Origin: Nemertoderma westbladi
Taxonomy: Eukaryota > Animalia > Xenacoelomorpha
DNA: 64,000 nt
Reading direction: 5' to 3'
NCBI GenBank assembly: GCA_032718475.1
Contig: JAUCBJ010007758.1
Location: 1-64,000 of the forward strand
The notes beneath the pieces were generated by a model. It was given only the letters and a program-made list of their open reading frames with translations. It was not told where the DNA came from and did no database searches. Shown here in pieces: positions 1 to 59,776 of this stretch. Within the stretch, counting starts at the first letter, position 1, and every line of letters starts with the position of its first letter. The translations under genes were made by a program, and so were the position numbers.

Positions 1-1
1 G

Positions 2-13149: not shown

Positions 13150-13159
13150 ATAACAGATA
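13150..13159 (+). promoter_or_regulatory. Non-tRNA primer-binding site of W (ATAACAGATA)
   Basis: Abuts the LTR end; exact reverse complement of TATCTGTTAT at 10885-10894 in the same LTR. Confidence 0.7.
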
Positions 13160-20032: not shown

Positions 20033-20586
20033 ATTTACGATTATATCCGTTACAAATTAGATCAGTTAGTTATAAGTCCAGAAAGTCTGAAACTATAGCG
20101 ATAGCAGAATAATTCAGTTTTTTTTTATTTAATTCAGTTTATTAATAACATTGCTATATAGGCATCTATCATCTTATTGCTAATACATTCAGCATTTACA
20201 GTTACTATAACTATACATTAATATCCAACCAGTTTTTTTTATGACTTTTTTGTCCTTTTCTTTTTTCTAATTATTTTCTTTAGACTTTTTATACCTTTTT
20301 TTGTCTTTTTTCATTTCATTATTATTTCATCTTATTTCAATTATTTCCACATATTTCAACACATTTATTTCCACCATTTATTTCACATTTATTTATTTCC
20401 ACATCATCATTGGGTTTATAGCCCCCCGGCTATCATCATTGGTTATAAGCGCAGCACCAGGGTGCGCATCATTTCATTTTCATCAGTATACGCGTCATCA
20501 TTCAGGTTTATAGCAGAGTTGTCTGATCCTTTTCATCGTTTCCAACTATATTCAATCATTTTCTTTGGTTAATCTTTGTCGTGGAA

Positions 20587-27549: not shown

Positions 27550-27627
27550 CCGCTCCCAGAAAATGGGATTTGAGTCTATAAAATATACAAAATCACAGTT
27601 TCTAATATACGTAAATACTCTAAACAG

Positions 27628-31172: not shown

Positions 31173-32669
31173 ATCTGCTATCTGAGTTTATTAATATCAA
31201 ATAAGTTTGTATTTAGGCGAGCGGGCGTCGCTGCCTACTTTTCTTTGCCCCCGGACAGTGGGATTCTCAGCGCCGATGTACCGTCGTCGCGGTGTTTACG
31301 CCAACATGTAGCAACAGCACGACAACGATAACCGGCACAAGTCACTCCACTGTCCGTCCCAAAGGCTTGGATCCACTTAGGTTCTTTCTATAGGAGAGTT
31401 GGGCTATTTTTACAATTGCGACTAGCTACTGTAAACATACTTTAGCAGTAACAACATTCACCTATAAACGCACAAATTCCACACAACTGTCAACAACTGC
31501 ACACACACAGGCCATTTGTCCGTTAGTCAGTGCCTTCCAGAATGTCACTTTATTACTGTGTATCCTTGGATACTAACAGTGTGCTATGTTCTCTATGCTA
31601 GGCAATGGGACAAGCTTTCTATTGTTCTTTTAACTTGCTTCTAATTCTAGCGTGGGTGTTGCTATGGTGACATTATGGAATGCTAGCGGTAGAATTAGGG
31701 TAATTCTCATGCGTACAGATCTGGGATGCTATTTAATAATAATTCTTTAATTGTCAATATCCTCTTTATGCATGATTTTATTAATTTTATCGGCTATTGA
31801 CTATATGTTGGATTTTCTCGCACTCTAATACACTCAATAGGATGAATCTCCGCTCCCATGATCTATTAATTAATGGAATTTTGGGAATGTTATAATTGTA
31901 CAAAAAAACAATTTATGAAATTCATTTAAAAATATGAATTTAAATTTATTCCCGTGAATTTTATTATTTGATGTTAAAATTGACACAATTTGATTCCAGA
32001 GCAGGTCTGGGGACATAGGATCCTTAATTCTATGAAATTTGTCTTTTAAGAGTATCGAGAAGTGCTACGATATCTTAATCGACTAGAATTGTTAACGGAT
32101 CTGAATTTTACAGATTTTAATAAATATTAAATTAATATTTAAGATGGGCACCGATTTATTCCAGAACTTGTCTGGGGACGTTAACCATTGATTCTAGAAT
32201 TTGTCTTTCAAGTATATCGGTGGGTGCCGCGATATCTTAATCGACTAGAATTACAGATGGTCAAAAGGTTTAACAGATTTATTTGCGTTTTACGCTACTG
32301 TTAGAGGGACATCACGCTACTATATGTATTATTTAATATAAGGTAGAAGAGCAATATCGCACGAAGCAATGTCAGTGTGAAGAGGCAAGTCGTTTCCAAG
32401 GTCTACCCAGAGCTTGGTTTAGCCGAGACACGAGGATCTGAACTTTGCATTCCTAATACTCTGCCTACCAATAATACTTGAATATAGTAGTGGCTTTATT
32501 GTACTTTAATAAGTACGGACATTTCATCTTACTGTAGTCACGTATTTATAATATGATACGTACAGTAAGGAAAGAGAAAAAATTATTTCTCGCCGTCGCA
32601 CTAAGTATATTATAAGTAATTACGTACGTAATAAACACTAATGTATTGCACTAATCTACTAAATAATAC

Positions 32670-35600
32670 TAATTTGGTGTCAAAGGATAAGGGCGCGTTG
32701 GTGAGTCTTCCTCCAACACGTATTAACCCATCTATCATTGTGCTCGAGAATCGATCCCTTAAGCGCATCTGCGGATTTCTCAACAACAGGAAGTACTTTT
32801 CGGAATCCTCATAGCATTGCAGGAGTCTCAGTATCTGTTTATTTGTTTCTTCATACTCCTGGTGACTGATTTTCTCTTTTAGAAAACGATCAGATATCTT
32901 ATATTTGGGTAAATTCTTAATAACATGAACTTGTGCAGATGTCAATGGAGCGTGATCACTAGTGGTCTTCGTCCTGGAGTAGTGATGATGAAAACATCGT
33001 CTTAAATATGTGACGGCTTTACAGAGCCGATTCCAGGAACTGTAATGATGCATTGCTCTCTGCAGCATGGGTGAGATTCCTTGCGAGACGTCTGGTATTC
33101 CAGATTTCCAATCTCTATCTCTAATTTCCACAACAGACTTATTTGTGTTGAGGGATTGTGGATCCGAAACATCATTCCCGGAAGTATGTAATACAGATCG
33201 ATCGATAGTCGGTTTAAATAACTTTGATTTACTCGCCCGGGTTTTAGGTTTGACGGTCTCCGCTCCCTTGGCTTGTCTAATCTCTGCCGTAGTAAGGTGA
33301 GGAGGCCATTCATCCTCTTCCTTGCTCAGGAAGTCGGGTCCACCCAACCAATCTGGAGTATCTATCAGTTCCTGTGGAGTTGCTCCCCAGGAGGCGATAT
33401 CGGCTGGATTAATCGTACCAGGGCAATGTCTCCATTGATCTATCTTTGTGCGACTAAGAATAATAGCTACTCGGTTAGTAACAAAAACGCTAAACTGACA
33501 GACTTCATTGGTGAGATACTCCAACACGAGTAAAGCGTCGGTCCAATAAACCGTTTTCTCCAGTGGATAGTCGATTTGTTCCGTTACGTTCCGGCCGATG
33601 GCTGTAGCGTATAAAGCCGCCTTTAACTCCGCTCGAGGAACCTTTAACTTGTTGTTAATCAATGCCTTAGAGGTAACCAAGGCGACTTTGATTCCATCCG
33701 GAGTTTCGACTCGCAGATATGCTACTATACCTATTCCCATGTCGCTGGCGTCTCCAAACACATGGAGTTGATAGGAATACGTAGGAAGAACATGGCCAAA
33801 ATATGCACAGGAAATTATAAAGTTCTCGATGGCAGGTAGAGAATCCTCCCATTTCATCCATTTCTTTAACAATTCCCCTTTAAGCGGATCGTCCCATGAG
33901 TGGTTTTCAAGCCACATCTGTTGTACTAAACTCCGAGCAATCAATATAACTGGGCTAATAAATCCCAATGGGTCGAAATAAGTGCTCAGGATGCTTAAAC
34001 AAATCCGTTTGGTCCGGACTGGATTATCTCGCTGTTTTAACTGAAAAAACAGGATGTCTCACTTCAAGCCTAGCGTCTTGGTTTCAGGAAGATCGTCCTT
34101 TATTAAATCTAGGTCTTTCGCTCCGCGATCTTCTACCGGTATGGCTTCCAGAAACTCACGGGAGTTGCTAGTGAATTTCGTCAGTCGAAATCCACCTCTT
34201 TTCAAACACTCTACCGTTCCTTTCGCGACAGCTATGGCTTCTTCTACTGATGGAAGGGACCTTAAATTGTCGTCCATGTATATATTGCGTTTTATGTTGT
34301 CTATCACTTCTTTGGAGAAGGAGTCTCGGTTGTCATTCGCAGTGGTTCGCACCACGGAGCAGGCGTTGGAAGGGCTTGATATGATCCCAAAAGCCTGGAT
34401 GGTCATCCAGTACTCTACCGGTTTCTGGTTGAGGTCTCCTTCAGGCCACCACAGAAATCTCAGGCTGTCTCTATCTCTATCCAGCGCCTTGACTTGTAAG
34501 AACATTCCTTCTATATCAGAGGCGAACGCGATGGAATATTGTCTTAATCTTAATAGTATTCCCAACAAAGATTGGAGTAAGTTGGGTCCTGGTAACAACT
34601 CGGAATTGAGGGATTGGCCCATATATAGCGCAGAGCCATCGAATACGACTCGGACTTCATGGGGTTTACCGGGTTTGGGAACGTAATGATGTGTTAAGTA
34701 ATACGTTCTCTCAGTTACTGGTGTTCCTTCCGGTACTCGCTCCGCGTATCCCTTTGTTATAAATTTCTTCAGCTGAGTTTGGTACATTTCTTTCGCTGAA
34801 GCATTAGCTGTAAGGCGTCGATATAATTGAGCGATTCTTTTCTCTGCCAAGGGTCTGTTATTTATAAATCTAGGTTCTCGTTTTCGAAATGGTAGGCCGA
34901 TTTCATATCTACCTTGGTCTTTTAAAAAACGTATAGTGGTTTCCTGGATTTGCTTGGCTCTTTCTTCTTCTATAGATAGAGCCTTATCATATGAATTGGG
35001 CTCTACCAGTTCCTGAGTAAAGAATCGTACAGCTAGTTCGTCCCGAGTTCTAGCGTTGTAGCGCTCTATCTCATCGTTTAGTTCGTCATTGTAAGCGATG
35101 GGTTCCGATGGGTGAATCAGTTGACAAAGGTTCACCTGACTTTTCCAAGTTTGGTTTTCTGTAAGTAGGTCGATTGTGTTCTCTTCATCGAAGAGTTGGT
35201 AGATGTCGTCATTATCTGAGGAGTATGGTGTTCCCTCAGTTAGTTCGTCCACCTCACTGCTCTCCACTTCCCAATCGTGTACTTGGTATGTGTGCTCTTG
35301 TGGCATTCTCTCTTCGAGAGTCCTGCGGGAAGGGCCAGTAAAGTACCAACCTACTCTAGTTCTTACTGCATAGGTTTGCAGTGGCTGTGGTTGAGCAGGC
35401 CGTTTCTCCAATGTTTCGAGCGCCTCATGCGCGTTCTGGCCGATGAGGATTTGCACTCCAGGATAATCTGTCTGGAATCGAGGTATCTCAAGATGTTGGA
35501 TGCTCTCATCCTCGTCCCAATTATAAAGGTCTGCTTGAGTAGTAGCGAAGTTCTTTATAGCCACCATTTTTACCGACCTTATACCTTGTGTTCCTAACTT

Positions 35601-38600
35601 ATCCTGGGGGGTGGACAACACACCTACATAGTAATCTGCCGTTAAGGTAGATTTCCAAACCTGCATAATTCCGGACATATTCAATTTAGTCCGGAATTTG
35701 GGTTGTCCAGCAAAGATATCTTCGGCTAATTCTTGATCAATGAATGTTCCTGTGCTGCCAGAGTCAAGGAGGGCGTTCACTATGTAACTTTTACTAAGAC
35801 CATGAACTCTTACCTGCACCACAGGAAATTCTCTGATTCCTACGTTGGAAGTTGGAGCTTTCCAAGATGGTTGTTTGGCAAAAGTAGTTGGGGGAAACTC
35901 ATTGTTGGTGACCTTTTCATAAGTAAGTGCTCAATACACTGCGGTATTGATTAGATAACAGGATTCGTTGGCGTCGGAGAATTCGTCAGTATAGAATCCT
36001 TCCATCTCAGACTCCTGATCAGTGTCATTTACATCACTGAATTGGACATGTAGTTCGGGCTCACTTACCTGACTCTGTTTGTCTCGTTCGAACTCACTGT
36101 GTAACAAGATGTGATGTTTCGCGCCACACTTTGCACACTTTATGTCGGAGTAACAGGTTCGCCGTTGGTGTCCTGGTCTGAGGCAATTATAGCATAACTG
36201 CTTGTCCCACACAACTGTACGTCTGTCTACAAGGGATTTCTTTAGAAATTCAGCACACGCACTCAAACGGTGGGTCCCGTCGCACAGCGCACAGTTAGGT
36301 TTTATGTTACTCACCTTACCTTGGGTAACTTGATGCACTCTCGTTTTTTCTTCGGGTTTTCTTCGGTGCATTCTGTTAGGAGACTGAGGGGGGGTCTTGG
36401 CAACCTGTTCTCTCCTATCGTTGTTTCGAGCCTTGTATTTACTTACATCTTTTGAGGTTTTGTCAACGTAGTAAGATCGCTCAGTATCTTTCCCGCTGTC
36501 CTCTTCTTGAGAAACTTGGCTTTCGCCGTCGTCAGTGTAACACACCGGTGTTATTCTTCTCCTAGGAGAGGGTTTCTCACTTACCTTATTTTCCGATGTT
36601 TTCTCTCTGGACTGCTTGATGAGTTGTAGTTTTACCTCACCATCTAAGAAGGACATGAGATCAGCCATGGTAGGACTTCGTCGTTGTTGTTCATTCATGT
36701 ACAACACTTTCTTGTCCCAGCGGGTACATACTCCACCCTTTGGTAAAGTAGAGACTACGGCTCCAATAACCATTGAACTCTGATATTCATGAGACTTACC
36801 TAACCAGTCGAATTGTCTACAGATCTCTTGAATCTCATCGGAAAACTCTATAATCCCGCTACTAAGGAAGTGTCGGGGGGCTACTAATTTTGCATACAAA
36901 TACTTAGCTATGTTATCCTTGTTACCATACCTGATGTTTAATGTATCCCATACTTGTCTTAATCCTTCTGGATGTCCAATAAACTTTAACGCCATTAACT
37001 TGGGAGGTCCTTCCAAGCACTTGATGAGGAACCTAAGTTTCTCTCCGTTAGATAGTACAGAGTTCTGTATGCTGTCTTTGTAATATTCATTGAAAGGTAA
37101 CCATTTCATCTCATCTCCATTGAATTTGACGATCTCTCCCACTTTGACCGCTTGGCGGGCTTCTGTTCTAGCCATGTGACGCGTAAAGCTTTCTTGGGCC
37201 ATCGTGTTATTTAATATCGAATTATCGGTATATAAATTTCTCGGATCAGTATCAGGTATATAGGGAATATCATTAATAAAAGGTCTATAATCACCCTTAA
37301 TAGGGTTTGCTATAGGAGTTTCTACTTCACTAGCAGTATAGATGCGTGTAGGCTCCACACCTTGCGCATGTAATACTTCAGACCTAACAGGTTGACACAA
37401 TGTTACAGGGGGTATTGGTATGCCCTTTTGTATATTGACTAATTTGTCGCGTTCTAGCGCGATACTTTGCTGCACTTCTTGCAACTCTGCTCTACCTTCC
37501 CTTACTGTTCCCTTAAGCTGGTGGACAGTCTACTGCATCTGTCCGAGCAGGAGATTCATCCCCCGCCGTCCCTCCTCTACCCACTCAACCGCCGAAGCGG
37601 GAGTCGCCAACATTGTAGCGGGCTGACGTGGGACGACGGGAGACAAATCTTTGATTTCTCTCTCAGCTTCCAGGACAGGAATATTCTCATGGACTGTTCT
37701 ACCGGGTACAGGCAGTGTAGTACTGTGTAAAGGGAACTTAGAGTTAAGCTCTGGAAGTACAGGGGTCTCTAGCACAGGTGTGACTTTGGGAACGACAGGC
37801 CTAATTATTTCAGGCTCATCAACTATTGTAGGGAGTCTTTTGACCTGAATAGTTTGGTATGTGGGTTCCGTACTCGCTAAGTCTGTGCTAGCTAGTTGTC
37901 TTCTAACAGCTGGGGGCAAATCAGGCAATTTGTGACGATGAGATGTTTTTCTACGCCTGCTTAGACGAGATCTATTTCCTCCGCCTTCAGGATCGGTGGT
38001 TTCACTTTCTTCCGATGATGTGTATCCCTGGCGTTTGGGAGTAGATTTTCTCATCATTTGCATGTGACTAGCAGTTAACTGTTTATTTATGTTGTCTTGC
38101 GTCTCTTGCAGATTTTCCAACTCCAGTTGGGTAGTCTGCTCAGATGCTCTCCGTTTTGCTTCTGCCACTGCCCTTTCCGCCTTTGCTTCTGCCGCCGCTG
38201 CCTTTCTTTTTGCTTCTGCTTCTGCCGCTGCTGCCCTTCTTTTTGCTTCTGCTTCTGCCGCAGCTGCCCTTCTTTTTGCTTCTGCTTCTGCCGCTGCTGC
38301 CCTTGCTGCTATTCTTTCTGCTTCTACTTCTGCCGCCGCTGCCTTTCTTTCTGCTTCTACTTCTGCCGCCGCTGCTTTTCTTTCTGCTTCTGCTTCTGCC
38401 GTAGCCGCCGCCCTTTGTTCCTCTATCCGTCTTTTCTTTACCTTTTCTTCTTGGACTCTAGTGAGGCGGAGTTTCTCATCAAACTCAGCTTGGTTAGCAG
38501 CTAACATTTCAGCATCGATTGAATCTAACACACGCTGGGTTCCTTCACTATTGGGGGAAAGTCCAGACAGCCGTCTCCTCAACTCTTCGTCTCCTAGGAA

Positions 38601-39590
38601 TCGCTGATAGTCGAACAGATAAATGTCGATGGCGTCTCTCGTTCGTGGTTTCTCTGAGGTCTCTTCGCCTTCCACTTGAGAAAGGGTGGCATCGGTTGGT
38701 TCTTCATGAGTTAGTCTCTCAGACAGCTGGGATTTCCACTGGTCTGTTTCTTGCACTTGGAGACCTACCCGCTGGAACCAAGTTTTTACAGCAACCTGCA
38801 GCGACGTGTCCTGTCTTCTTTTGGAAGTTTCCTCAAAAGCCGATAGGATTAGTCGAATGCGTAGGGTTCTTTCGCGTACTTGATATAGCAGTTCTTCCTG
38901 CTCTTGAGGTCCTTGGTGTTGTCGAAACAGTTGTTCTTCTAATCTCTCTAAGGAGCCGAAGAATCCCTGCACATATCCTGCTGCCGACCTCTTCCAAACA
39001 GCTGGATCCATTGTATCTTTAGCCACTCCCATCCTGTGTATATCTTCCCAAGTAGCCTCGGACAGATCTAACGGGAGTCCGGGTCCGGGAAAGTTCCATT
39101 GTGACTCGACAATAGACATCAATTCTTCCCTGGCGTATCCCGCATAATCATCTTGGGTCGCTCGCTTATTTCTCGCCCAATCTGCTTGATGTTCCTCCAC
39201 CGCAATCAATATAGTTGTTAGCACTGCGGCAGGAAGGGTGAGAAGGGGGTCCGAGTAGGCTTTAGTCGTCATCTGCAATCCGCGTTCGGGGGTCAGTTCG
39301 ACAGTATCCGAACTACTGGAGCTATCTGATCGCTGGGAACAAGTTTCTTGACTAGGCTGTTGCTGCTGTGGGGCAGCTGCTTCCTGGTTCCGTTTGACTT
39401 GGGCCCGAGTGCCGATGATGGACCTACGGTGTTGGATTAGCTTAGGGTCCGATATCACTACTGGAGGGATGACTTTTCTTTCAGTAGGAGGTGAGCTGAA
39501 CTCCTTTCTTAAACGCTCCACACTCCTATCTGTGTCACAGATGGTTGTATCGATTAGACTGTCTGACAGGTTTTGCTGAGTGTCAGACAT
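32670..39590 (-). pseudogene. gag-pol: X gag-pol (Gag, 3 Zn knuckles, PR, RT, RNase H; integrase deleted)
   Basis: KFNGDEMKW..LSNGEKL, CYNCLRPGH, LLDSGS, YMDD, FGDAS and NPADIAS. Stops at 37530 and 35931, frameshift ~34055, and a jump to the 3' UTR after PLSFDTK. Confidence 0.95.
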
Positions 39591-41662
39591 GTTTAGCTAT
39601 ACAGTTGAATGCCTACTGCTATAGTTACAGTTAAAGCAAGTCTAGTAATTCAGTATGACCGTTGGCCTAGTACCGGTAATTTATTGCAGTATATTAGAAT
39701 ACCGGTATGCACTTATAATATATATAAGTATTGTAAACTAGGTTTGTCACAGAGTACCGGTATATAAATTTAGCACAAATATATATAAATATATAATAGG
39801 CCTATCGTGAATACCGGTATACAGCTTACACTTATAGTATATATAAGTATAATTATGAACTAGAATTAATTACAGGATACCGGTATGATTTCAGCTCGAA
39901 TTTATAGAAATAAATATAATAAGCCTATGGTAAATACCGGTATGTCAATTATTTTAGAATAATTGATTTTCTGAATATTTTAGGGTTACTTGGTTACTTT
40001 AACTTACTTTGTTACCGTTATTTAAGCAGTAGACCAACTGATATTGAGACCTAGTTGTTGTATGGCAGGCCTACTATTTATAAATCGTTTGAGTTGATTT
40101 ATAATAGATATATACCCGTTTAAAATGGGTTTTGTCAATATTTGAAATAAATGTTATTATTTCTGGGGGGTCACTACACAGAAGCTGTGCGCTCTCAGTG
40201 AAGTGCTATTTATTTGACACTAAAACTGATAATTCTAATTTACCTAAGTTACTTAATACTACAAATTACTTACGATACGGGTGAGATTAAATCTCTAATT
40301 AAACACAACAAAAAATATTACGTACGAATTTTTAGGGTAATTTTACAGGAAGTCTACAGACCAGTCTAACAAAGGGTTAGAATTTCTGGTTATTACAACG
40401 GACAGGGTACTACGGTATTTGAAAATAATAAGTAGTAGTAAATATATTGCACTGTCCAGATAAGAAAATACCACCGCCTGACGACCTATAACCGTATCGC
40501 TATAGGTACTACGTTATGTATCACGGAGTGTTCCTACCTAGAAGTTAATTACCGCGGACTACCAGATCCAGCGTGCCTATTAACCACTTTACAACACAAA
40601 TATACTGCCTACACACTAATTACTTCGGAAAGCACTAGTAAATTAGGTACAAGTACTGGTACAACAAATAATCAGTAGTTAAATATACTTGAACAGTTAA
40701 AAGAACCACGGCATCTGCTGGAGTGACCGAAGCACAAAGTCACCAGTCTTTTCCTACGCCAAGCAGCCCGTGTAGTTCCGTTAATTTAACTATAACGGTA
40801 TGTGTAACAAACACAATTACTGTAGGAATAAACTTGGGGACATGAATGTTGCGAATAATCGCATAAACTCTGAATAATAAATATTACGCTACCCGTACAG
40901 AATACTCAAACAAAATACAGACCAAACGCTGGCAGACTACCACCAAGCCTAAATAAACTACTGTATGTGCAGATTCCAAAACGGTTAGTTAGTATGCGTT
41001 CTAACACGGTAGTACGACTTATTCTTTAAGAGGGGATTGACCTTACAGTTATGACTGCCCCAACTTACTAACTGGCACTTTATCAGACAAACTCTACACA
41101 AGCAGCAATCTCTTCAGACCTAATAATAGCTAGACAACAATCCAGCCTACAAAATATCTGAGTAATAACTATTACGGTATCTGAACAGACCACACAAACA
41201 AACACAAGCCAAAACGCTGGCAGAATACTGTCAAGCCTAAATAAACTACAGTATGTGCAGATTCCAAAATTGTTAGTTAGTATGCGTTCTAACACGGTAG
41301 TACGACTTATTCTTTAAGAGGGGATTGACCTTACAGCAATGGCTGCCCCAACTTACTAACTGGCACTCCATCGGACAAACTCCACACACGCCGTAATCTC
41401 TCCAAACCCAACAACAATCTGACAACAGTCAGGCCTACAATTATCTGAACAATCTGAGCAGACTTACACGTCTTCAGCTCAATATTAACTTACTAGGAAA
41501 TAAAACTGACAGAAATAGACCTAAGTAAAATCCCAATAAAAACCAGGCGTCCCCGATTTAATATCGAGACCTACCGGTATACAATAATCAAATCGAATAA
41601 TACTAATGTACTTATACTGGAAGTACCGGTTAGTACAGTTGGGCCTACAGACCTACAGAAGT

Positions 41663-42854
41663 TGTTCGCGCTTTCAGACCTTTGGCAGTTTAACCCGCCA
41701 AATTATGATGTCTTCTAGATATTAAATCGCTTTTCTGCCTACGACAAATATTTGATTCACTACACTAGTCGAAACCAATCCGTGCGCGACCATTCACCCG
41801 CTGGATATTCCCGGGAGATTGGGTTCGACGGTTTAATTTTATTGCTATGTAAGCCTAATGTATTATTCGACTGACAGTATTATATAATCTCTGACAATAT
41901 TATTTACCTTCGGGAATATTAACAGTTCCTTTAGGACGTGGCGCTTTATCTACATAAACAGAGTTATGACTTAAACTACTCACAACGATATGGCTTAATT
42001 ATAATTCACATATATGGCGCATTCTTTAGGAATGCTTCTTTAACAGACTCACTCATACACAATGCTGCACAATACTGCACACTAATCTGCCGATCTTCAC
42101 TGATTTTAGTCACATATAAAAGAAACACAGACTGACTCATGTAGGGTCTATCAAATAACATTAGATTCACTTCAAACCACTTTAACATAAGTCACAATCG
42201 TTTATCTGTAACCTTTCTCTCTTACCTTCGGTATATCAAGAATATTGGGTTTCGGGGTATTTATCGTTATTCCAAATATAATAATTCATCCACAAATATA
42301 ATGAATAACCGACAGTAAATAGCAGTATAAAACAACAACTGAGCACTGATTGTTATGAGTTTGCAATGTTTCAGCAGTCAGTAGTATGCCGTGCGTTAGG
42401 TATGCAGTCCGCAGTTAAAGGATATATGTCCTTATAATTAAACCTGCTAGTGTTAAACTAAAAAGCAGAAAAGCACAAAACACTATAAGCCGTTCTTTCG
42501 TGGCTTTGAAAAACTCGTGACTACGAGAATACCAACTACACTTATTCCCCAAAGCTCCCGTTCAACACAGAGGATGAGCAGTGAGATAGGAATTTTCAGT
42601 TCAGTAGCTCAGGATTGGTTAAAATCCAGGATAACTCAAATTTCTATTGGAAGATACAAAAACAGGCTATGACGCAACCCTCTTAGGCTAGTTGGACGAT
42701 TAACAGAGCCCAGATACCTGCATCCCACAAATCAGCCAATAAGCTGGTAGCTTACACTATTTTAACTATAGATCACTTTGAGAGTATTCTTAGCGACTGG
42801 GGGGGAACTGGCCAACAAGGCAAACGAATCAGTTATCCCACAAAAGCTTTTACA
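41663..42854 (-). repeat. 3' LTR of Y
   Basis: TG..CA termini; almost identical to 57241-58432; PPT-like GGGAGCGG at 42855-42862. Confidence 0.95.
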
Positions 42855-46210: not shown

Positions 46211-49200
46211 TTAAGTTGGGGAGTCCCTAGATGTCGGTTGGATTAGGGAAGTGGTCGTGGGAAGAGTTTCTTGCCTTCCATAGTTTCCGGAGAGCTCTCT
46301 GTCTCTTTCCAGTAAACATAAACGTCCCACTGGGCGATTAAGCTGTTGAGTCTCAAAGACTATCCCTGGTTTCTTAAAGTTCCGCCGCATGACGACGAGC
46401 TCTACTGATCGCACCAAACCATCGCTCGAGATATAAGTCTCGATGATACGTCCTGTTTGCCATCGCTTACGTGGGAGATCGGGGTCCACAATAAGCACCA
46501 TGTCTCCAGCGCTGACGTTTTCTTGCTGCGCAAACCACTTAGTTCGAAGTTGTAGAGTGGGCAGGTAATGTTTCTCAAAATGGTCAGCGAAACGACGGGA
46601 TAGCAACTGCATAAGTTGCCAGGTTCGACGGCAGTACTCGTCTCCGTCTGTGATCTCCGATCGTGGGAGCATGGCTACGGGCTTCTTCAGTAGAAAGTGC
46701 GCGGGTGTTAGCGCTTCCAGGGAATCAGGATTTGAAGAGACTGGCATAAGCGGTCTTTCGTTGAGATAAGCGGCGATTTACTCCATTAACGTCCGCAATA
46801 ATTCGTCGGTGAGATAAGCGCGACAAGGCACAATAAAGTGGAACGCAGTCTTCACGCTCCTAATCAATCTCTCCCAACTTCCTCCCCACCAAGGGGCGTC
46901 GGCGGCGTTGAAGGTCCAGCTAGACGCTGTTATCCTTAGCTGATCGTCCACCTGTCTTTTGTTCCAGTCCTTTACGTAAGCTTGAATTTCGTTGTTGGCG
47001 CCAATGAAGTTCGTTCCCTTATCCGATCTCATCGTGTTACTGGTTCCGAAGCGAGCGATCTGTCGTTGTAAACTCAACACGAAGCTGTTGGTGGAGAGAT
47101 CGTTTACCATATCGAGGTGGATAGCTCTACAAGTCATACAAACGAAGATGACACACCATCTCTTGACTATAGTCCGGGCACGATATACTTCAATAGGGCC
47201 AAATAAATCCACACCGGTATTAGTAAAGGGTGGTTCATAGAAGCTTACTCTTTCCCTAGGTAATTCTGCCTCTCGCTGTGTTAAAGGCCTACTGAATGCT
47301 TTCCTACAGGGTATACAATTCCTAAGAACTTGGTTCAGAGCCCTACGGGGTTTATAAAAATAGTAGCGAGTTCGAATTTCGCTCAGAACTCGTTCTCTCC
47401 CAGCATGGTACAGTTTGCTATGAACATCTACAATCATCTTGATTTGTATATCAAGATTTCTAATAAGTATGGGAAACTTAGTGTCAAAGGATAATGGGGC
47501 GTTTGTTAATCTACCTCCAACACGTATTAACCCATCTATCATGGTACTAGAGAAGCGATCCCTTAAGCGCATCTGTGGATTTCTTAACAACAGGAAATAC
47601 TTATCGGAATCCTCATAGCATTGTAGGAGTCTCAGCATCTGTTTGTTGGTTTCATCATGCTCCTGGTAGCTGATCTTCTCCTTTAGAAACCTGTCGGGTA
47701 TCTTGTATTTAGGAATATCTTTAATAACATGGACTCGTGCAGATGTTGATGGAGCGTCATCGCTATTGGTCTTTGTTCCGGAGTAACGATGATGAAAACA
47801 TCGTTTCAAATAGGTGACGGCTTTACATAGCCGATTCCAGGAACTGTAGTGACGTATAGCTCTCTGCAAGAGAGGTGAGAGTCCTTGCGCGATATCTGGT
47901 ATTCCAAATTTCCAATCCTTGTCACGGATTTCCAAGACTTCTTTCGTCGTGGCGGTGGGTTTCTGATCCAAAGCATCATCTCCGGAAGTAAATAATACAG
48001 ATAGATCAACCGCAGGTTTAAACAACTTCGATTTACTCGCTCGAGTTTTGGGTTTAACTTTCTCCGCTCCCTTGGCCTGTCTGATCTCTGCTGTTGTGAG
48101 ATGGGGTGGCCATTCTTCTTCTTCTCGATAGAGAAAGTCGGGTCCACCTAACCATTCGGGAGTATTTACCAATTCCTTTGGAGTCGCTCCTCGGGACGCG
48201 ATGTCCGCTGGATTAATCGTTCCGGGGCAATGTCTCCATTGGTCCATCGTCGTGCGACTAAGTATGATGGCTACCCTGTTGGTAACGAAGACGCTGAACT
48301 GACAGACTTCATTGGTTATATACTCTAACACGAGTAAAGCGTCGGTCCAATATACAGTTTTCTCTAATGTATAGTCAATCTGTTCGGTTACATTCCGGCC
48401 GATGGCTGTAGCGTATAGAGCCGCCTTTAACTCCGCTCGAGGAACTTTCAACTTGTTGTTGATTAATGCCTTAGAAGTAACCAAGGCGACTTTGATTCCA
48501 TCCGGAGTTTCCACTCTTAGGTAGGCTACTATACCGATTCCCATATCGCTGGCGTCTCCAAACACATGGAGTTGATAGGAATACGTAGGGAGAACATGAC
48601 CAAAATATGAACGGGAAATTATAAACTCCTCGATCGCCGGTAGAGAATCTTCCCATTTCATCCACTGCTTCAGTAATTCCCCTTTAAGTGGATCGTCCCA
48701 TGAGTGGTTTTCAAGCCACATTTGTTGTACTAAACTACGAGCAATCAATATAACTGGGCTAATAAATCCCAATGGATCGAAATAAGTGCTCAGTATACTT
48801 AAGCAAATCCGTTTGGTTCGAACTGGATTATCTCGCTGTTTTAGTTGGAAAAACAGGATATCTCTCTCTGTGTCCCATTTCAAGCCGAGTGTCTTGGTTT
48901 CTGGCAGATCATCTTTGATCAAATCGAGATCTTTCGCTCCGCGATCTTCCGCAGGAATCGACTCCAGAAACTCACGGGAGTTGCTGGTGAATTTGGTTAA
49001 TCGAAATCCACCTCTTTTTAAGCACTCTACCGTTCCCTTAGCGACCTCAATGGCTTCCTCAACTGATGGGAGGGACTTCAGATTGTCGTCCATGTATATG
49101 TCTTTCTTGATGTTGTCGATCACTTCCTTAGAGAATGCCTCTCGGTAGTACGCACTACAGAACAGGCATTGGAAGAGCTTGAGATTATCCCAAAGGCCTG

Positions 49201-52200
49201 GATGGTCATCCAGTACTCCACCGGTTTCTGGTTGAGGTCTCCTTCGGGCCACCATAGAAATCGTAGGCTATCTCGATCCCTATCCAACACTTTGACTTGC
49301 AAGAACATGCCTTCTATATCGGAGGCGAAAGCAATCGAATATTGTCTCAATCTTAAAAGAATTCCCAACAAAGATTGAAGCAAGTTGGGTCCGGGTAACA
49401 ATTCAGAGTTAAGGGATTGACCCATGTAAAGAGCGGAGCCATCAAACACTACTCTCACTTCGTGTGGTTTACCGGGTTTAGGAACGTAATGGTGAGTTAA
49501 ATAATACGTTCTTTCAGTCACAGGTGTTTCTTCCGGTACCCTCTCCGCGTATCCCTTATTAATGAATTTTTCCAGCTGTGTTTGATACATTGCTTTAGCT
49601 GATGAATTAGCCGTAAGGCGTCGATGGAGTTGCGCGATTCTTTTTTCCGCCAAAGGTCTGTTATTGATGAACTTCGGTTCTTTCTTGCGGAAAGGTAAAC
49701 CGACTTCATACCTACCTTGATCTTTGAGGAAACATGTAGTTGTCTCTTGGATCTGCTTGGCCCTTTCCTCTTCCACCGACAAGGCTTTATCGTAGGAATT
49801 GGGCTCTACCGCCTCTTGCGTAAAGAATCGTACAGCATGTTCATCCCGAATCTTGGCATTATGACGCTCAATGACGTCATTTAACTCGTCGTTATAAGCT
49901 TCTCGTTCAGATGGATAGAGAAGTTGACATAAGTTCACTTGGTTTTGCCAAGCCTCGTTTTCCTTAAGGAGATCGATGGTATTCTCCTCATCAAAAAGCT
50001 GGTGAACATCGTTGTTATCTGAGGAGTATGGAATTCCCTCAGTTGAATCGTCTCCCTCACTAGCATCATCTTCCCATTCACTCACCTTGTAGACTCTCTC
50101 TTGCGGTAGTCTTTCTCTGAGTGTTCTACGGGAAGGGCCAGTAAAGTACCAACCTACTCTAGTTCTTACCGCATAGGTCTGTAGGGGCTGCGGTTGAGCA
50201 GGCCGTTTCTCTAACGTCTCCAGCGCCTCATGCGCGTTTTGGCCGATGAGTATTTGCACTCCAGGATAATCAGTCTGGAATCGAGGTATGTTAAGATGTT
50301 GGATGCTCTCATCCTCGTCCCAATTATAAAGGTCTGCTTGGGTAGTAGCGAAGTTCTTTATAGCTACCATTTTCACTGACCTGATGCTATGTTCTCCTAG
50401 TTCGTCCTGTGGGGTGGACAACACGCCTACATAATAATCAGCTGTTATTGTAGATTTCCAAACTTGCATAATGCCTGACATATTGAGCTTAGTTTGGAAC
50501 TTGGGTTGTCCAGCAAATATATCTTCGGCTAACTCTTTATCGATAAATGTTCCTGTGCTGCCGGAGTCCAGGAGGGCGTTCACTACATAACTTCTCTTAG
50601 GTCCGTGAACCCTTACCTGTACCACAGGAAACTCTCGGATTCCTACATTGGAGGATGTCTCTTTCCAAGGTGGTTGTCGTTCAGAAGTAGTTAGAGCAAA
50701 GTCGTTGTCTGGATCCTTTTCATATGTGAGTGCTCGATACACTGCGGTATTTATCATGTAACAGGATTCGTTTTCGTCGGAGAACTCATCTGTATAGAAT
50801 CCTTCCATCTCAGATTGATCAGTATCGTTCACATCACTGAATTGGACATGTAGCTCAGAATCACTTACCTGATTCGGACTATTTCGATCGAATTCAGCGT
50901 GCAACAAGATATGATGTTTCGCACCACACTTTGCACATCTTATGTCCGAGAAACAGGTACGCCGTTGGTGTCCTTGTCTGAGGCAATTATAACATAACCG
51001 CTTATCCCACATAACTTCGCGTCTCTCCGTTAATGATTTCTTTAGAAATTCATCACACCTATTCAAATAGTGGGTCCCGTCACACAGCGCACATTTTGGT
51101 TTGATGTTACTTACCTTATTCTGAGTCACATTGTGTACACTTGCCTTTTCTTCGGGCTTTCTCACCTGAATTCTCTTGGGAGACGTGGGAGGAGTTTTTC
51201 TTACTTGTTCTCTCCTGTCATTTGTTCGAGACTTGAATTTACTTACCTGATCTTTAGGCATTTTATTCACGTAATAAGATCTATCCGTGTCCTTCCCGCT
51301 ATCTTCTCCTTGTGAAGTCTGGCTTTCGCCGTCATCGGTATAACATACTGGTGTTATTTTTCTCCTAGAGACGGGTTTCTCACTTACCTTGTTTTCCGGT
51401 GTTTTCTCCCTAGACAGTTTCAGGAGCTGTAATTTCACTTCTCCATCTAGGAATGACATGAGATCAGCCATGGTAGGGTCTCGCCGTTGTTGTTCCATCA
51501 TATATAACACTTTCTTATCCCAGCGTGTACCTACTCCACCTTTAGGTAACTACTACTAGGATCGGCATGCTGCATTGCAGCTGCATTTTTAAGAATGCTG
51601 TGCCGGCTTGTCAACAAAATTGCACCGCCACAACTCCCTATCACCCATGACATTTGCTAGATCATCCGCATCTTTAAGGCCAGTGTCCTTTAAGATGCGT
51701 CTCAAGAAAGTCATGGGCTGTCCACCATGCTTATTCACTCCATGAGGCTGCCAAAGTACAAGATTATGCACTGGCTGGTCCTCACGGCGAAAGCAATGTC
51801 CTGCAAAGCGGAGGCGATTTTGTTCTAGTGTCAAGCTTGGGGGAACCAATGAGACACCTCCAATGTTATATAGTGTCTGGTTGGAGATGTGTGCATTGTA
51901 CTTGACACAATGAACCCGGCGTAGCATTCTTGTGAATGTGCCATCCAGAGATTTGGTGTCCTCAGCAGTTAGAGCCCAGCATGGACTCCCGTAGAGGAGT
52001 ACTGGAACTACTGCTGCTCTAAATAATCGGACCTTAAGTTTCCGATTAATTCTCGGTGATTTCCAAATCCTGGAAAGCCTATTCAAGGCTGTCCATGCCT
52101 TTCCCTTACGTATTCGAAGGTCCTCACCTGACTTCCGGATCCATGATCCCAGGTAACAGAAGTCGTCCACATGCTCAAGCATACCATCCTTTGAGCTTAT

Positions 52201-55024
52201 GCTCTTCCGATCAGAGACTTGCTGAGGACTTTCAAAGTTAACAGTCAGAATTTTGGTCTTTCTGGAGTTAATAAAAAGTTTAAAAATTTACTTTAGGTAA
52301 AGTAGAAGCCACTGCTCTAATAACCATAGTGTTCTGATACTCATGAGACTTACCTAGCCAATCTAATTGTCTGCAGATCTCCTGGATCTCATCGGAAAAC
52401 TCGATAATTCCGCTACTAATAAACTTTCGGGGCGCTACTAACTTTGCATACAAGTACCCAGCGATATTATTCCTATTACCATACCTGATGTTTAGTGTAT
52501 CCCAAACTTGTCTTAATCCGTCTGGATGTCCAATAAACTTTAACGCCATTAACTTGGGAGATCCTTCCAAGCACTCGATGAGGTATCTAAGTTTTTCTCC
52601 ATTAGATAGTACAGAGTTCTGTATGTTATCTTTGTAATATTCATTAAAAGGTAACCATTTCATCTCATCTCCATTGAACTTGACGATCTCTCCCACCTTT
52701 ACCGCTTGCCGGGCTTCGGTTCTAGCCATTTGACGCGTAAAACTTTCTTGGGCCATCGTATTATTGAATATCGAGTTATCGGTATATAAATTTCTCGGAT
52801 TGTGATCCGTTCTATATGGAATATCATTATCAACAGGTCTATAATTACCCTTAATAGGGTTCACTACAGGGGTTTCTACTTCGCTAGCAGTATAGATGCG
52901 TGTAGGCTCCACACCTTGCGCATGAGATACTTCAGACCTAACGGGTTGACACATTGTTACAGAGGGTGGTGGTATACCCTTTTGGGTATTTACTAATTTA
53001 TCGCGCTCTAGCGCGATACTTTGCTGCATTTCTTGCAACTCTAGCTTACTTTCCCTTACTGTGCCCCTAAATTGCTGGACAGTCTCCTGCATCTGCCCGA
53101 GCAGGATATCCATTCCCCGTCGCCCCTCGTCCACCCATTCGACCGCCGAAGCGGGAGTCGCCAACGATGTAGCGGGCGGACGAGGGACAACGGGCGACAA
53201 ATTATGAATATTTCGCTCGGGGTCCAGGACCTGAACTGTCTCCTGGGCAGTTCTACGGGGCACAGGTAGCTTAGTGCTATGCAGAGGGAACTTAGCAGTT
53301 ACTTCAGGGAGCACAGGTGTGTCTATCACAGTAGGGGTGATTTCAAGAACAGGCCTAATTATTTCAGGCTCATCTACTATAGTAGGGAGTCTTTCTATTT
53401 TAATTATTTGGTCTATGGGTTCTGTGCTACCTAAATTGGTGCTATTTAGTTGCCTTCTAACAGCTGGAGGCAAATCAGGTAATTTCTGACGGTGGAATGT
53501 TCTTTTACGTCTGCTTAGACGAGATCTATTTCCCTTGCCTTCAGTATCGGTGGTATCGCCTTCCTCAGATGATGTATATCCCTGTCTTTTGGGAGTAGAT
53601 CGATTCATCATCTGCATATTACTAGCTGTTAACTGTTTATTTATGCAGTCTTGATTCTCCTGAATGTTTTCCAATTCTAATTGGATGGTTTCTTCAGCCG
53701 CCCTCCGTTCTGCTTCTGCTACTGCTATTTTTCTTTCCGCTTCGGCCGCAGCTGCCGCTTTTGCCTCTGCCGCTGCCGCCTTTGCCTCTGCCGCTGCCTC
53801 TGCCGCTTTTCTATCCGCTTCTGCCGCTGCCACTGCCGCTGCTGCTGTCTTTCTATCTTCTATACGTTTTTTCTTTACTTGTTCTTCCTTTTCTCTAGCG
53901 ATGCGGAGTTGTTCATCGAATTTAGCTTGATTCGCCGCTAACCTATCCACATCAATTGCATCCAACACAAGTTTGGCTCCTTCGCTATTAGGGCTAAGTC
54001 CCTCTAACCTTCTCCTCAACTCTGCATCTCCGACAAAGCGCTGATAGTCTGACAGATAGATGTCAATGGCATCCCTCTTATGCGGTTTCTCTGCCGTCGC
54101 TTCACTTTCCACTTGGGAAAAAGTAGCGTCTGTTGATTCTCCATGGGTTGAGCGCTCCTCCAACTGAGCTTTCCACTGAGCTGCTCCTTGAACCTGTCTG
54201 TTCACTCGTTGAAACCAAGTCTTTACGGCAACTTGCAACGACGTGTCTTGTCTTCTTTTAGAAGCCTCCTCAAAGGCTGATAAGATTAGCCTGATACGTA
54301 GAACTCTTTCTCTAACTTGATAAAGCAGCGATCCCTGCTCTTGAGGTCCTTGAGGTTGTTGAAAAAGTTGCCTTTCTATTCGCTCCATAGAGCTGAAGAA
54401 TCCCTGTGCGTATCCGGCTGCGGACCTCTTCCACACAGCTGGATCGATGGTTTCCTTGGCTACTCCCATCCGGTGTATGTCTTCCCAGGGAGCTTCTGAT
54501 AAATCAAACGGGAGTCCGGGTCCGGGGAAGTTCCATTGCGACTCGACAATAGACTTCAGTTCTTCACTAGTGTATCCCGCGTAGCTATCTCTAGTTGACC
54601 GTTGACTTCTCGCCCAATCGATCTGGTGTTCTTCCACCGCGATCAATAACCCAGCGAGCACGGCTGCAGGATAGATGAGAAGGGGATCCGTATAAACCGC
54701 ATCCGTCATCTCTGCTCCGCTCTCGGGTGTCAGCTCTACAGTATCCTCACTACTGGAGCTGCTGGGCCGCTGAGGAATAAGTTCTTGACTAGCGGGTTGT
54801 TGCTGTTCCGCTGCCTTTTGGTCCCGCTTGACCTGAGCTCGAGTGCCTATGATAGACCTACGATGTTGGACCAGCCTAGGTTCTGTTATTACTACTGGAG
54901 GGATGACCTTCCTCACAGTGGGAGGTGAACTGGATTTACGACCAGACGGTTGTACGTCTCTATCTGAGTCGCAGATAGTTACATCTAATAAACTGTCTGA
55001 CAGGTTCTGCTTAGTATCAGACAT
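46211..55024 (-). pseudogene. gag-pol: Y gag-pol (Gag-PR-RT-RNase H-IN), disrupted by a LINE insertion, a frameshift (~49140) and a break at ~46778
   Basis: ORFs 52280..55024, 49120..51510, 46778..49255 and 46211..46747. Motifs LLDSGS, YMDD, FGDAS, HAG..CIPC, GVDLFGP, SDKGTNF, GGSWERL and LTPAHFL give the BEL/Pao domain order. Confidence 0.97.
51550..52290 (-). mobile_element. 5'-truncated RTE-like LINE inserted in Y gag
   Basis: 10-bp TSD CTTTAGGTAA at 51540-51549 and 52291-52300; FCYLGS..LLYGS..W RT C-terminus; (TAG)3 tail. Excision restores ASTLPK|GGVGTRWDKK. Confidence 0.95.
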
Positions 55025-57225
55025 GACTAGGTATGTACAGTTGAATGCCTACTGCTATATTACAGTCTAAGCAAGTCTAGTAACTCAGTATGAACTGCTA
55101 GCCTAGTAATTAATTACCGTTACTGCTACTCAGTGTAGCGTGATATATATATAATATATTAGAATACCGGTATACTTATAGTATATATAACTATATAAGT
55201 ATTATTACAGACTAGGTTTATCACAGAATACCGGTATAATTTTAGCACAAATATATATAAATATATAATAGGCCTATCGGAATACCGGTATACAGCTTAC
55301 AGTTTGTAGGATATATAATTCTGAAATAGAATTAATTACAAGTACCGGTATAATTTCAGCCTAGATTTATAGAAATAAAGATAATAGGCCTATCGTAAAT
55401 ACCGGTATATCAATTATTTCAAATAATTGAATTTCTGTTACTTTAGGGTTACTTTGTTACTTTACTCACTTTATTACCGTTATTTGAGCAGTAATCCAAC
55501 TGATATTGAGACCTAATTGTTATATGGTAGGCCTACTATTTATAAATCGTTAGATTTGATTTATAATTTATATATACCCGTTTTAATGGGTTTTGTCAAT
55601 GTTTGAAATAAATGTTATTATTTCTGGGGGTAATCACTGCACAAAGCGGTGCGCTTTCAGTGAAGTGTTACTTATAGGACACTAAAACAAATAATGCTAA
55701 TTGACCTAAGTTACTTAATACTACAAATTACGTACGATTCGGGTTGAGATTACAATCTCTAAATAAACACAAAAATTTACAAAAAACACAAAATACGAAT
55801 TTTTAGGGTAATTTTACAAGAAGTCTACAAACCAGCCTAACAAAGGGTTAGAATCTGGTTATTACAACGAACAGGGTACTACGGTATTTGAAAATAATAA
55901 GTAGTAGTAAATACACTGCGTTGTCTAGATAGGAAAATACCACCGCCTGACGACCTAGAGCCGTATCGCTATAGGTTCTACGTTATGTATCACGGAGTGT
56001 TCCTACCTAGAAGTTAATAGAGCTAATCGAAGGTGCCTATCAACCACTTTACAACACAAATATAATGCCTACAATAATTACTTTCGGAAAGCACTGTACA
56101 CTAAACCCTAAATTAGGTACGAGTACTTGTACAACAGATAATCAGTAGTTAAATATACTTGAACAGCTAAAAGAACCACGGCATCTGCTGGAGTGACCGA
56201 TGCACAAAATCACCAGTCTTTACCTACGCCAAGCAGCCCGTGTAGTACCGAGGTTAATTTAACTATAGCGGTATGTATAACAAACACAATTACTGTAGGA
56301 ACAAACTTGGGGAATGAATGTTGCGAATAATCGCATAAACTCTGAATAATAAATATTACGCTACGCGTACAAACTACTCAAACAAAATGCAGACCAAATA
56401 CCGACAGACTACTATCAAGCCTAAACAAACTACGGTATATGCAGACTCCGAAATGATTAGGCAGTATGCGTTCTAACCCAGTAGTACGACTTATTCTTTA
56501 GCTGGGGGTTTACCTTACAGCGTTCGCTGCCCCTACTTCCTAACCGTACTCAATCGGACAGGTGCTCTACACACACTACAATCCGTTCAGACCTGATAAC
56601 AGCCAGACAATTATCCAGCCTACAAATTATCCAAATAAAATTATACGCTACCCGTACAGACTTACACAAACAAAGTACAGACTAAACGATGGCAGACTAC
56701 TCTCAAGCCTAAATAAACTACAGGACATGCAGACTCCGAAATGATTAGGGAGTATGCGCTCTAACCCAGTAGTGCGACTTATTCTTTAGTTGGGGGTTTA
56801 CCCTACAGCGTTCGCTGCCCCTACTTCCTAATCGTACTTAATCGGACAAGTGCTCTACACACACTGTAATCCGTTCAGACTTAACAGCAATCAGACAACA
56901 GCTCAGCCTACAAATTGTCTGCACAATCTGATCAGGCTTACACGCCTTCTGTTCAATACTGGCCTACAAACAAATAAAACTTGACAGAAATAAGTAAAAA
57001 TCTCAATAAAAAACCAGGGCTGCAGTCCCTGATTAATTATTAAGGCCTACTGGTATATAATAATCAAAATCGAATAATACTGCTGTACCTGTACTGCTGT
57101 AGGTACCGGTCCGGGTGGTTAGGTAGTCAGGCCTACTGGTACCGGTTCTGGCAGTTGGGCCTACTGACCTACAGATGTACCGGTTGACCGGTACTTTCAA
57201 CTTTATTGCTTACTGCAATAAAGAA

Positions 57226-57240
57226 ACATATATCCTTTAA
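57226..57240 (-). promoter_or_regulatory. Non-tRNA primer-binding site of Y (sense TTAAAGGATATATGT)
   Basis: 15/15 complementary to the LTR site at 57993-58007 (and 42415-42429); abuts the LTR end. Confidence 0.8.
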
Positions 57241-58432
57241 TGTTCGCGCTTTCAGACCTTTGGCAGTTTAACCCGCCAAATTATGATGTCTTCTAGATAT
57301 TAAATCGCTTTTCTGCCTACGACAAATATTTGATTCACTACACTAGTCGAAACCAATCCGTGCGCGACCATTCACCCGCTGGATATTCCCGGGAGATTGG
57401 GTTCGACGGTTTAATTTTATTGCTATGTAAGCCTAATGTATTATTCGACTGACAGTATTATATAATCTCTGACAATATTATTTACCTTCGGGAATATTAA
57501 CAGTTCCTTTAGGACGTGGCGCTTTATCTACATAAACAGAGTTATGACTTAAACTACTCACAACGATATGGCTTAATTATAATTCACATATATGGCGCAT
57601 TCTTTAGGAATGCTTCTTTAACAGACTCACTCATACACAATGCTGCACAATACTGCACACTAATCTGCCGATCTTCACTGATTTTAGTCACATATAAAAG
57701 AAACACAGACTGACTCATGTAGGGTCTATCAAATAACATTAGATTCACTTCAAACCACTTTAACATAAGTCACAATCGTTTATCTGTAACCTTTCTCTCT
57801 TACCTTCGGTATATCAAGAATATTGGGTTTCGGGGTATTTATCGTTATTCCAAATATAATAATTCATCCACAAATATAATGAATAACCGACAGTAAATAG
57901 CAGTATAAAACAACAACTGAACACTGATTGTTATGAGTTTGCAATGTTTCAGCAGTCAGTAGTATGCCGTGCGTTAGGTATGCAGTCCGCAGTTAAAGGA
58001 TATATGTCCTTATAATTAAACCTGCTAGTGTTAAACTAAAAAGCAGAAAAGCACAAAACACTATAAGCCGTTCTTTCGTGGCTTTGAAAAACTCGTGACT
58101 ACGAGAATACCAACTACACTTATTCCCCAAAGCTCCCGTTCAACACAGAGGATGAGCAGTGAGATAGGAATTTTCAGTTCAGTAGCTCAGGATTGGTTAA
58201 AATCCAGGATAACTCCAATTTCTATTGGAAGATACAAAAACAGGCTATGACGCAACCCTCTTAGGCTAGTTGGACGATTAACAGAGCCCAGATACCTGCA
58301 TCCCACAAATCAGCCAATAAGCTGGTAGCTTACACTATTTTAACTATAGATCACTTTGAGAGTATTCTTAGCGACTGGGGGGGAACTGGCCAACAAGGCA
58401 AACGAATCAGTTATCCCACAAAAGCTTTTACA
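57241..58432 (-). repeat. 5' LTR of Y
   Basis: Pairs with 41663-42854. Confidence 0.95.
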
Positions 58433-58499
58433 GAAGTACCGGTTCAGGTTTACCGGTTGACCGGTACTTTCAACTTTATTGCTTACTGCAATAAAGTCA

Positions 58500-58510
58500 A
58501 TGACTGTTAT
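58500..58510 (-). promoter_or_regulatory. Non-tRNA primer-binding site of X (sense ATAACAGTCAT)
   Basis: 11/11 complementary to the LTR site at 59265-59275 (and 27038-27048); abuts the LTR end. Confidence 0.78.
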
Positions 58511-59776
58511 TGTACGCGCTTTTGAAGACCTTTAGCAGTTTAACCTGCCAAAATTTATATGTCTTTTGGTTTATAAATATACTTTAGAAGAAGACAAATA
58601 TTTAATACCAATAAACACAACATTAGCAGAAGCCAGCCTAGTGCGCGTCCATTCACCCGCTGGATAATCCCGGGAGACTGGATTCTGTCGGCTTAAATTA
58701 TTATTGCAGTGAAGCTTACTGTATTGTATTATTCGATTGATCGTTAATAATTAATTTCTGACTAATATTATTTACTTTCGGGAAATATTAACAGTTCCTT
58801 TAGGACGTGGCGCTCTATCTAAGTAAACAGAGATATGACTTATACTAATCACAACGGTAAGTCGGTAAGGCTTAAGATTCACGTATGAGGCGCATTCTTT
58901 AAGAAATGCTTAGTTATCAATCACAATCATGCACAATACCGGTAACACACAATACCGCTCACTAATTTGCCGACCGTCAATGAATTTTATCATATATAAA
59001 GGGAATAGCAACGGACCAATGTAGTGCTTATTAAATAGCATTAAATTCACTACAAACCACAACAATATAAGTCGCAATCGCTATATATAACCCGTCTCTC
59101 TAACCTGTAGTGTATCAAAAAAAAGGGAAATTTGGGTTCTTTATATATGTTCTCCAAATGATATTCAACCAAACACAACAGTAAATAGCAGTATAATAAT
59201 GTATGTTAAACAGTAATAACAACAAAGTATTGAATTGTGAATGGAATTGTTAAGATTAGATTGGATAACAGTCATACGCTCTATAATTTAAGCCTACTAA
59301 TGTTTCTTATAAAAGTATGAAACGAATTGATTCTAGAGCCGTTGTTCCTGGCCTAGACAGCAATAACAACAAAGTATCAAGAAAAAAACAGTAAGACTGA
59401 ACACACTCCTTATGATTGACCGAAAAGCTACACGTCGACAGGAAAAATCGCTCTGATTGGCTCAAGCCAAACAAAGAACCATGCGTCCAATGGCTGTTTC
59501 CATGTCAGCAACCAGCTGTTAGATGTCGTAATATGAATCATCACGGCTAAGCTATGAAAGGTATTTGCCGCATTGCAGGTTTTTTGTCTTACCATGTCCG
59601 CTAATACACGTATATAGCAAAATGACTTTTATGTCCGTTAAAACACCTGTAACGGTACCTTGAGGGCGAGGGGAATATTTATACAGTTATAGAACCTTTT
59701 TAGAGTATTCCAGCATCTGGGGGGAAACTGGATTGCGAAGCAAAGGGGCCAGTTATATCTCACAGAAGCTTTTACA
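58511..59776 (-). repeat. 5' LTR of X
   Basis: Pairs with 26283-27549. Confidence 0.95.

Follow-up and report, generated by a model that had tools for sequence, protein, structure and literature searches.

Candidate self-priming in a family of BEL/Pao retrotransposons with primer-binding sites complementary to their own LTRs

Three related LTR retrotransposons, X, Y and W, in a 64 kb stretch of a Nemertoderma westbladi contig (analysed over its full 64,000 nucleotides and referred to below as the window) carry directly after the 5′ LTR a putative primer-binding site (PBS) that is complementary to a site within the LTR of the same element. By analogy with Tf1, we consider it likely (a probability of about 80%) that these elements use a piece of their own transcript as the primer for minus-strand DNA. 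The ICTV profile of the Belpaoviridae agrees with the premise of the original prediction that BEL/Pao elements are described as tRNA-primed: it gives an 18 nt PBS that corresponds to the tRNA-Arg or tRNA-Gly 3′ end and genomes of 4.2–10 kb, and calls BEL/Pao replication poorly understood (PMC8742986).

Architecture and classification of the elements

Self-comparison and reading of the boundaries identified X, Y and W as kindred LTR elements (Table 1). In X and Y, target duplications of 5 bp (GCATC, outside both LTRs, for X and ACTTC for Y) establish where the LTRs end. Y sits inside the leader of X, about 78 nt beyond the X LTR, and X in turn interrupts the RNase H region of a further BEL/Pao element, Z, the 5′ LTR of which was not found within the window. 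The divergence between 5′ and 3′ LTRs (16 differences in 1267 columns for X and two in 1192 for Y) agrees with this order of nesting. The leader of W extends to about 15484 and then ends; its coding region is absent from the window, and its assignment to BEL/Pao is based on 78–84% DNA identity to Y over the LTR and leader.

Table 1. Positions in the window of the features of X, Y and W; helices, primers and motifs are predicted or candidate features
Feature	Position	Strand	Remarks
X 5′ LTR	58511..59776	-	1266 bp, TG..CA
X 3′ LTR	26283..27549	-	Weak purine tract 27550-27558 just before
Y 5′ LTR	57241..58432	-	1192 bp
Y 3′ LTR	41663..42854	-	Self-comparison and boundary reading
W 5′ LTR	10453 (about)..13149	+	Split by TTAA-flanked insertion 10949-12519
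X gag-pol	32610..39596	-	DUF1759, Peptidase_A17; interrupted by in-frame stops
Y gag-pol	46211..55048	-	DUF1759, Peptidase_A17, Integrase_H2C2, DUF5641; several frames
X PBS	58500..58510	-	Adjoins terminal CA
Y PBS	57226..57240	-	Boundary reading
W PBS	13150..13159	+	Boundary reading
X candidate self-primer	59265..59275	-	11 nt, LTR position 502; 3′ LTR copy 27038-27048
Y candidate self-primer	57993..58007	-	15 nt complement, LTR position 426; 11 nt core 58003-57993
W candidate self-primer	10884..10894	+	Pairs at 10/11 positions; 10 nt run 10885-10894
X LTR-end helix (58514..58648)	58648-58643 with 58519-58514	-	Predicted, 6 bp, abuts LTR end
Y LTR-end helix	57367-57362 with 57249-57244	-	Predicted
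W LTR-end helix	13036-13041 with 13141-13146	+	Predicted
X post-PBS helix (58480..58716)	Leader 58495-58480 with LTR 58716-58700	-	Predicted
Y post-PBS helix	57222-57208 with 57432-57416	-	Predicted
W post-PBS helix	13169-13184 with 12971-12987	+	Predicted
X conserved block upstream of candidate primer	59276..59320	-	
Y conserved block	58004-58050	-	
W conserved block	10840-10883	+	
X splice-donor-like AG/GT(A/T)AG	59098..59108	-	Motif only
Y splice-donor-like motif	57797-57807	-	Motif only
W splice-donor-like motif	12619-12629		Motif only

Pao-specific Pfam domains score above the cut-offs in both coding elements (DUF1759, Peptidase_A17 and DUF5641 in Y, and the first two in X), and the order gag–PR–RT–RH–IN between TG..CA LTRs with a target duplication is that expected of BEL/Pao. 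The RT of X and Y gave no Pfam match; the RT and protease motifs were read by eye. A protein search with the RT–RNase H region returned 93 matches at E ≤ 1e-20, all of them with PF05380 and none above 42% identity. Domains, gene order and protein matches place X and Y in BEL/Pao (Belpaoviridae). The domain search of X and Y gave no chromodomain match, and their Pol is not that of a Ty3/gypsy chromovirus, which defines the Tf1/sushi group; judged by their sequences, X, Y and W are not members of that group. X and Y resemble the Belpaoviridae of the ICTV profile in domain set and order, TG..CA LTRs, a purine tract and an extra frame after pol, and the family differs from them in lacking TGG and in an element length of about 16 kb (PMC8742986). 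It represents a BEL/Pao variant outside the tRNA-primed reference description. The genes of X and Y in the window carry stops, frame changes and a LINE-like piece, the last of which breaks the gag of Y at about 51550–52290. Public runs of one organism contain abundant sequence of the X/Y/W family.

Several other features were observed. The piece in the gag of Y (51550–52292) resembles a LINE 3′ end (DUF6451, below the cut-off), carries a tail of TAG repeats and is accompanied by a short duplication; window positions 1–181 are a 97% copy of the piece. The TTAA-flanked insertion in the LTR of W (10949–12519), which we take to be piggyBac-like, is non-coding and has terminal inverted repeats and internal 163 nt tandem repeats. 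After pol, X has extra frames (27653–31187, minus strand) of 670, 240 and 179 amino acids, with no Pfam or usable Atlas match, and Y has a related, shorter region. The leaders (55050–57225 and 39600–41660 on the minus strand and 13150–15484 on the plus strand) exceed 2 kb and contain 288 nt tandem repeats, with several ACCGGT palindromes near the PBS; Y was inserted in the palindromic zone of X. In Z, all on the minus strand, a frame after the integrase (19148–20056) gives a tentative match to a 3′–5′ exonuclease (PF01612, Atlas score 0.83), the pol (21282–26070) contains near-identical duplications (22535–23171/23970–24606 and 23180–23973/25414–26207) that represent either rearrangement or an assembly artefact, and the probable 3′ LTR starts near 17275 and includes, at 16050–16970, several units of about 75 nt with a predicted long hairpin and no Rfam match.

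The primer-binding site and its partner in the LTR

The terminal CA of the 5′ LTR is followed by ATAACAGTCAT in X, TTAAAGGATATATGT in Y and ATAACAGATA in W. TGG is absent from all three, as originally predicted, and with it the 18 nt tRNA-type PBS (tRNA-Arg/Gly 3′ end), which in the ICTV profile is a descriptive trait and not a phylogenetic criterion; Rfam (at the gathering score) and ARAGORN gave no match and no tRNA gene in the window. Counted from the first base after CA, the complement in the element's own LTR is 11 nt long in X, 15 nt in Y and 10 nt in W, compared with 5–7 nt in the LTRs of the other elements. The predicted lengths, the flush start at the terminal CA and the full match of each PBS to its own LTR alone are thereby borne out, and the motif described upstream of the partner is also present. 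Within the window the partner sites are confined to the elements' own LTRs (also at 27038 for X and 42415 for Y). All 36 PBS–partner pairs of X, Y and W are Watson–Crick and none is G·U. The common register is an 11 nt core that begins with A, is preceded by T and starts at 59275 (X), 58003 (Y) and 10884 (W); its 3′ end lies 754 nt (X) and 752 nt (Y) from the LTR end. The primer of Tf1 is likewise 11 nt long.

The original prediction also held that PBS and partner co-vary, and this stands for a set of close kin. Between X and Y both sites have changed at positions 1, 5, 6, 8 and 9 (five of the 11); matched differences separate X from W at positions 8 and 9 and Y from W at positions 1, 5 and 6. 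At position 11 of W the PBS alone differs, with no matching change in the partner. Among the variants listed for contigs assembled from two public runs, none at a level of at least 3% falls in the Y partner or the X PBS while the flanks vary, which supports self-priming weakly. In one public run (six contigs, agreement 0.78) a loose end matches the Y PBS for 12 letters and then diverges; the complement normal for the family is suggested to be 11–12 nt and not 15.

Dinucleotide shuffles of the LTR reached the observed run in none of 400 cases for X and Y and in one of 400 for W (5′ LTR part); in a larger set the counts were five, zero and 26 of 5000, respectively. An energy score over 14 nt was reached by eight (X), one (Y) and 65 (W) of 400 shuffles, so that the score of W is unremarkable. 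Because the three elements are closely related (92% identity between X and Y in RT–RNase H), these values do not represent three independent trials. Other offsets in the leader also give 10 nt complementary runs.

Predicted fold and flanking helices

In Tf1 the leader adopts a 'pretzel', in which the primer–PBS duplex is accompanied by pairing of both PBS-adjacent segments with the LTR downstream of the primer (PMC10085805). A similar three-duplex arrangement is predicted in X, Y and W. The helix at the LTR end closes 3 nt short of that end and shows compensatory changes at two of six pairs, and in all three elements the best partner of its LTR arm is the element's own LTR end. For the 15–16 nt after the PBS, the best partner in the last 620 nt of the LTR is in every case the homologous site 155–190 nt before the LTR end. 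The letters of this arm differ in W and are matched in the W LTR (−21.5 versus −9.7 kcal/mol for the X/Y arm); the LTRs of X and Y also pair better with the W arm than with their own. When the PBS is held open, the minimum-energy fold contains both flanking helices in all three elements. Shuffles reached them in 27, 28 and 49 and in 59, 26 and 88 of 500 cases, which makes each individually weak, and a local hairpin competes with the post-PBS arm (probability of about 0.6 in X and Y). With that limit on each helix, the predicted resemblance to the Tf1 pretzel supports the self-priming reading.

For an RNA begun at the core, the primer helix is predicted across 750 nt with a probability of 0.94–1.0 for most inner pairs. 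This predicted helix is lost in X once 30 nt of upstream sequence is added, and in both X and Y with 100 nt, so the self-priming model needs an RNA start near the core.

The LTRs were also searched for signals of transcription and splicing. The conserved block directly upstream of the candidate primer could equally be a core promoter or a splice acceptor. A motif scan of X, Y and W found no conserved TATA at −30 of the core, and no AATAAA is common to all three LTRs. In X and Y the conserved splice-donor-like motif lies about 160–200 nt 3′ of the candidate primer; as a motif it fits transcription from near the core. By eye, the alignment of X, Y and W shows no donor conserved on the 5′ side of the core. 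A primer formed across a splice junction was considered for X, Y and W and rejected: the best junction runs are 0–6 nt, which is the chance level, and the partner is contiguous.

Distant BEL/Pao relatives

A profile search for relatives confirmed 514 loci, 80 of which were considered, at 33–44% identity. Eleven were examined, with the candidate 5′ LTR end set by a flanking repeat; three (L021, L059 and L071) were dropped because the boundary was not clear, and eight were tested, among them L031, which was retained despite a missing CA. A self-complementary primer site of 10–15 nt is present in seven of the eight. In five (L003, L077, L028, L039 and L047) the complement, of 11–15 nt, spans a predicted splice junction within the element's own LTR. 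These complements start 2–3 nt after CA, take 4–6 nt from the upstream exon and were reached by none of 200 shuffles each; in the predicted introns, 77–164 nt separate a GTAAGT donor from a pyrimidine-rich YAG acceptor. The mutually related L029 and L031 have contiguous complements of 10 and 12 nt (reached by five and zero of 200 shuffles). The eighth, L046, lacks a self-match and has TGG following three T. Before the junction test was applied, the test for contiguous complements alone had been mostly negative among the relatives. When each primer site was scored against every LTR, the element's own LTR was top or tied in nine of nine rows; off the diagonal, four cells reached scores of 10–11, and two of these pair L003 with L077, which are related to each other.

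In a quick tree of 109 rows, without named references, typed elements occur to either side of the midpoint; X and Y share a long branch within a group of weak support (SH-aLRT 84), of which L047 is also a member. Given the quick search and this long branch, an independent origin, an intron loss or the direction of change is not readable from the tree. A 20 nt LTR motif had no match in viral or metagenome contigs, and a protein alignment search gave no relative in viral contigs.

These relatives suggest a link between splicing and priming. In the junction form the primer would exist only once the host spliceosome had removed the LTR intron, and the contiguous form (X, Y, W and two relatives) possibly arises by intron loss. 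That self-priming, in these two forms, is the normal mode across a large BEL/Pao branch is a tentative proposal that we consider slightly less likely than not.

Proposed mechanism and alternative explanations

By comparison with Tf1/Tf2 (PMC4600332, PMC5341516), the RNA would start at the core or shortly before it, with expected 5′ ends at 59275 (X), 58003–58007 (Y) and 10884 (W). The element's RNase H would cut past the last core base and leave a 3′ OH, giving primer 3′ ends at 59265 (X), 57993 (Y) and 10894 (W), while the two predicted flanking helices would hold the PBS open as in the pretzel. Strong-stop DNA would copy about 750 nt of U5 and R and then jump to the 3′ R, and plus-strand synthesis would copy the primer back into the next PBS. 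With the PBS re-copied from the primer in this way, both sites would stay in step without two separate mutations. We infer that concerted change with Watson–Crick pairs throughout is the pattern of templated copying, as a helix kept for its structure would drift to G·U; the nearby U5 hairpin has G·U in four of eight pairs, against zero in the primer–PBS helix. The length of the primer–PBS loop (750 nt), the kinship of the three elements and the interrupted genes of the copies count against the proposal.

An unlikely alternative accepts the pairing but gives it a structural or regulatory role (a masking switch, or a packaging or translation element) and has the primer supplied by a host tRNA half or some other small RNA. 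Copia lineages include known cases of half-tRNA priming that lack TGG (PMC6317226). The fungal GalEa copia elements likewise lack a tRNA PBS and have a conserved hairpin just past the 5′ LTR (the Conserved Hairpin Site), their mechanism being unknown, and a similar hairpin lies 3′ of the PBS here; an LTR complement, present in X, Y and W, was not found in GalEa in the text available (PMC5445492). A host-RNA primer, however, needs a different RNA for each of these AT-rich sites (18–27% GC), each of which matches its own LTR as well. A helix of purely structural function would allow G·U and need not begin exactly at base 1. We give slightly less credence still to a partner located upstream of the transcription start, so that the RNA contains the 3′ LTR copy alone, which pairs with the PBS and either circularizes the genome or yields a primer cut from the 3′ end. 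The partner does occur in both LTRs, and a TATA-like AT-rich stretch 5–16 nt ahead of the core would place the start just 3′ of it, but the motif scan does not identify this stretch as a consensus TATA, the flanking helices match the 5′ arrangement of Tf1, and a primer cut from the 3′ copy would presumably harm template required later. Chance complementarity, inherited once, is very improbable. The elements are related and AT-rich and have further 10 nt runs elsewhere in the leader, but two of those runs are the pretzel arm, and the shuffles and the seven of eight relatives speak against chance; the matched changes at five of 11 positions effectively refute it.

Self-priming, the core of the original prediction, thus stands as the best explanation, with the predicted flanking helices and seven of eight relatives in its favour. 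The independent BEL/Pao origin also claimed there is neither demonstrated nor as exceptional as it was made to seem. The trait is spread over distant BEL/Pao branches and so need not have arisen in the X/Y/W family, and the self-priming predicted for the plant Ty1/copia TAR lineage (Houba, Osr-1; PMC6317226), outside Tf1/sushi, makes an independent BEL/Pao case less singular than was implied. That lineage belongs to a different superfamily and kingdom from X, Y and W; a further occurrence is not unprecedented.

Comparison with known systems and implications

A PBS complementary to the element's own LTR is likewise found in Tf1/Tf2 of S. pombe, Tj1, Tosmo1-3 and Tcry1, and in the Tf1/sushi and Tcn1 groups of Ty3/gypsy chromoviruses (PMC10085805, PMC4600332 and PMC5341516). 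According to PMC6317226, self-priming has been described in Tf1/sushi, and it is predicted for Tcn1 as it is for TAR. Unlike the Tf1 group, X and Y have BEL/Pao proteins, LTRs of 1.2 kb, about 750 nt between primer and PBS and a length of 16 kb, and priming in X, Y and W is read from sequence. A literature search, mostly of open-access text and outside Repbase, GyDB and the primary Levin and Poulter papers, found no report of BEL/Pao self-priming; the accessible parts of PMC5445492, PMC3601003, PMC8220671, PMC3286476 and PMC3587641 do not mention it, and the terms PBS and tRNA are absent from the main text of the BEL/Pao surveys PMC3118150 and PMC554778.

The signature described here would carry a Tf1-type mechanism to a third LTR superfamily, and it raises the question of whether self-cleavage by RNase H evolved repeatedly or is old. 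It would also explain why tRNA-based annotation has missed the primer sites of such elements. If the wider proposal is true, a major group of animal retrotransposons would be largely independent of tRNA, and in many of its members replication would be gated by splicing.
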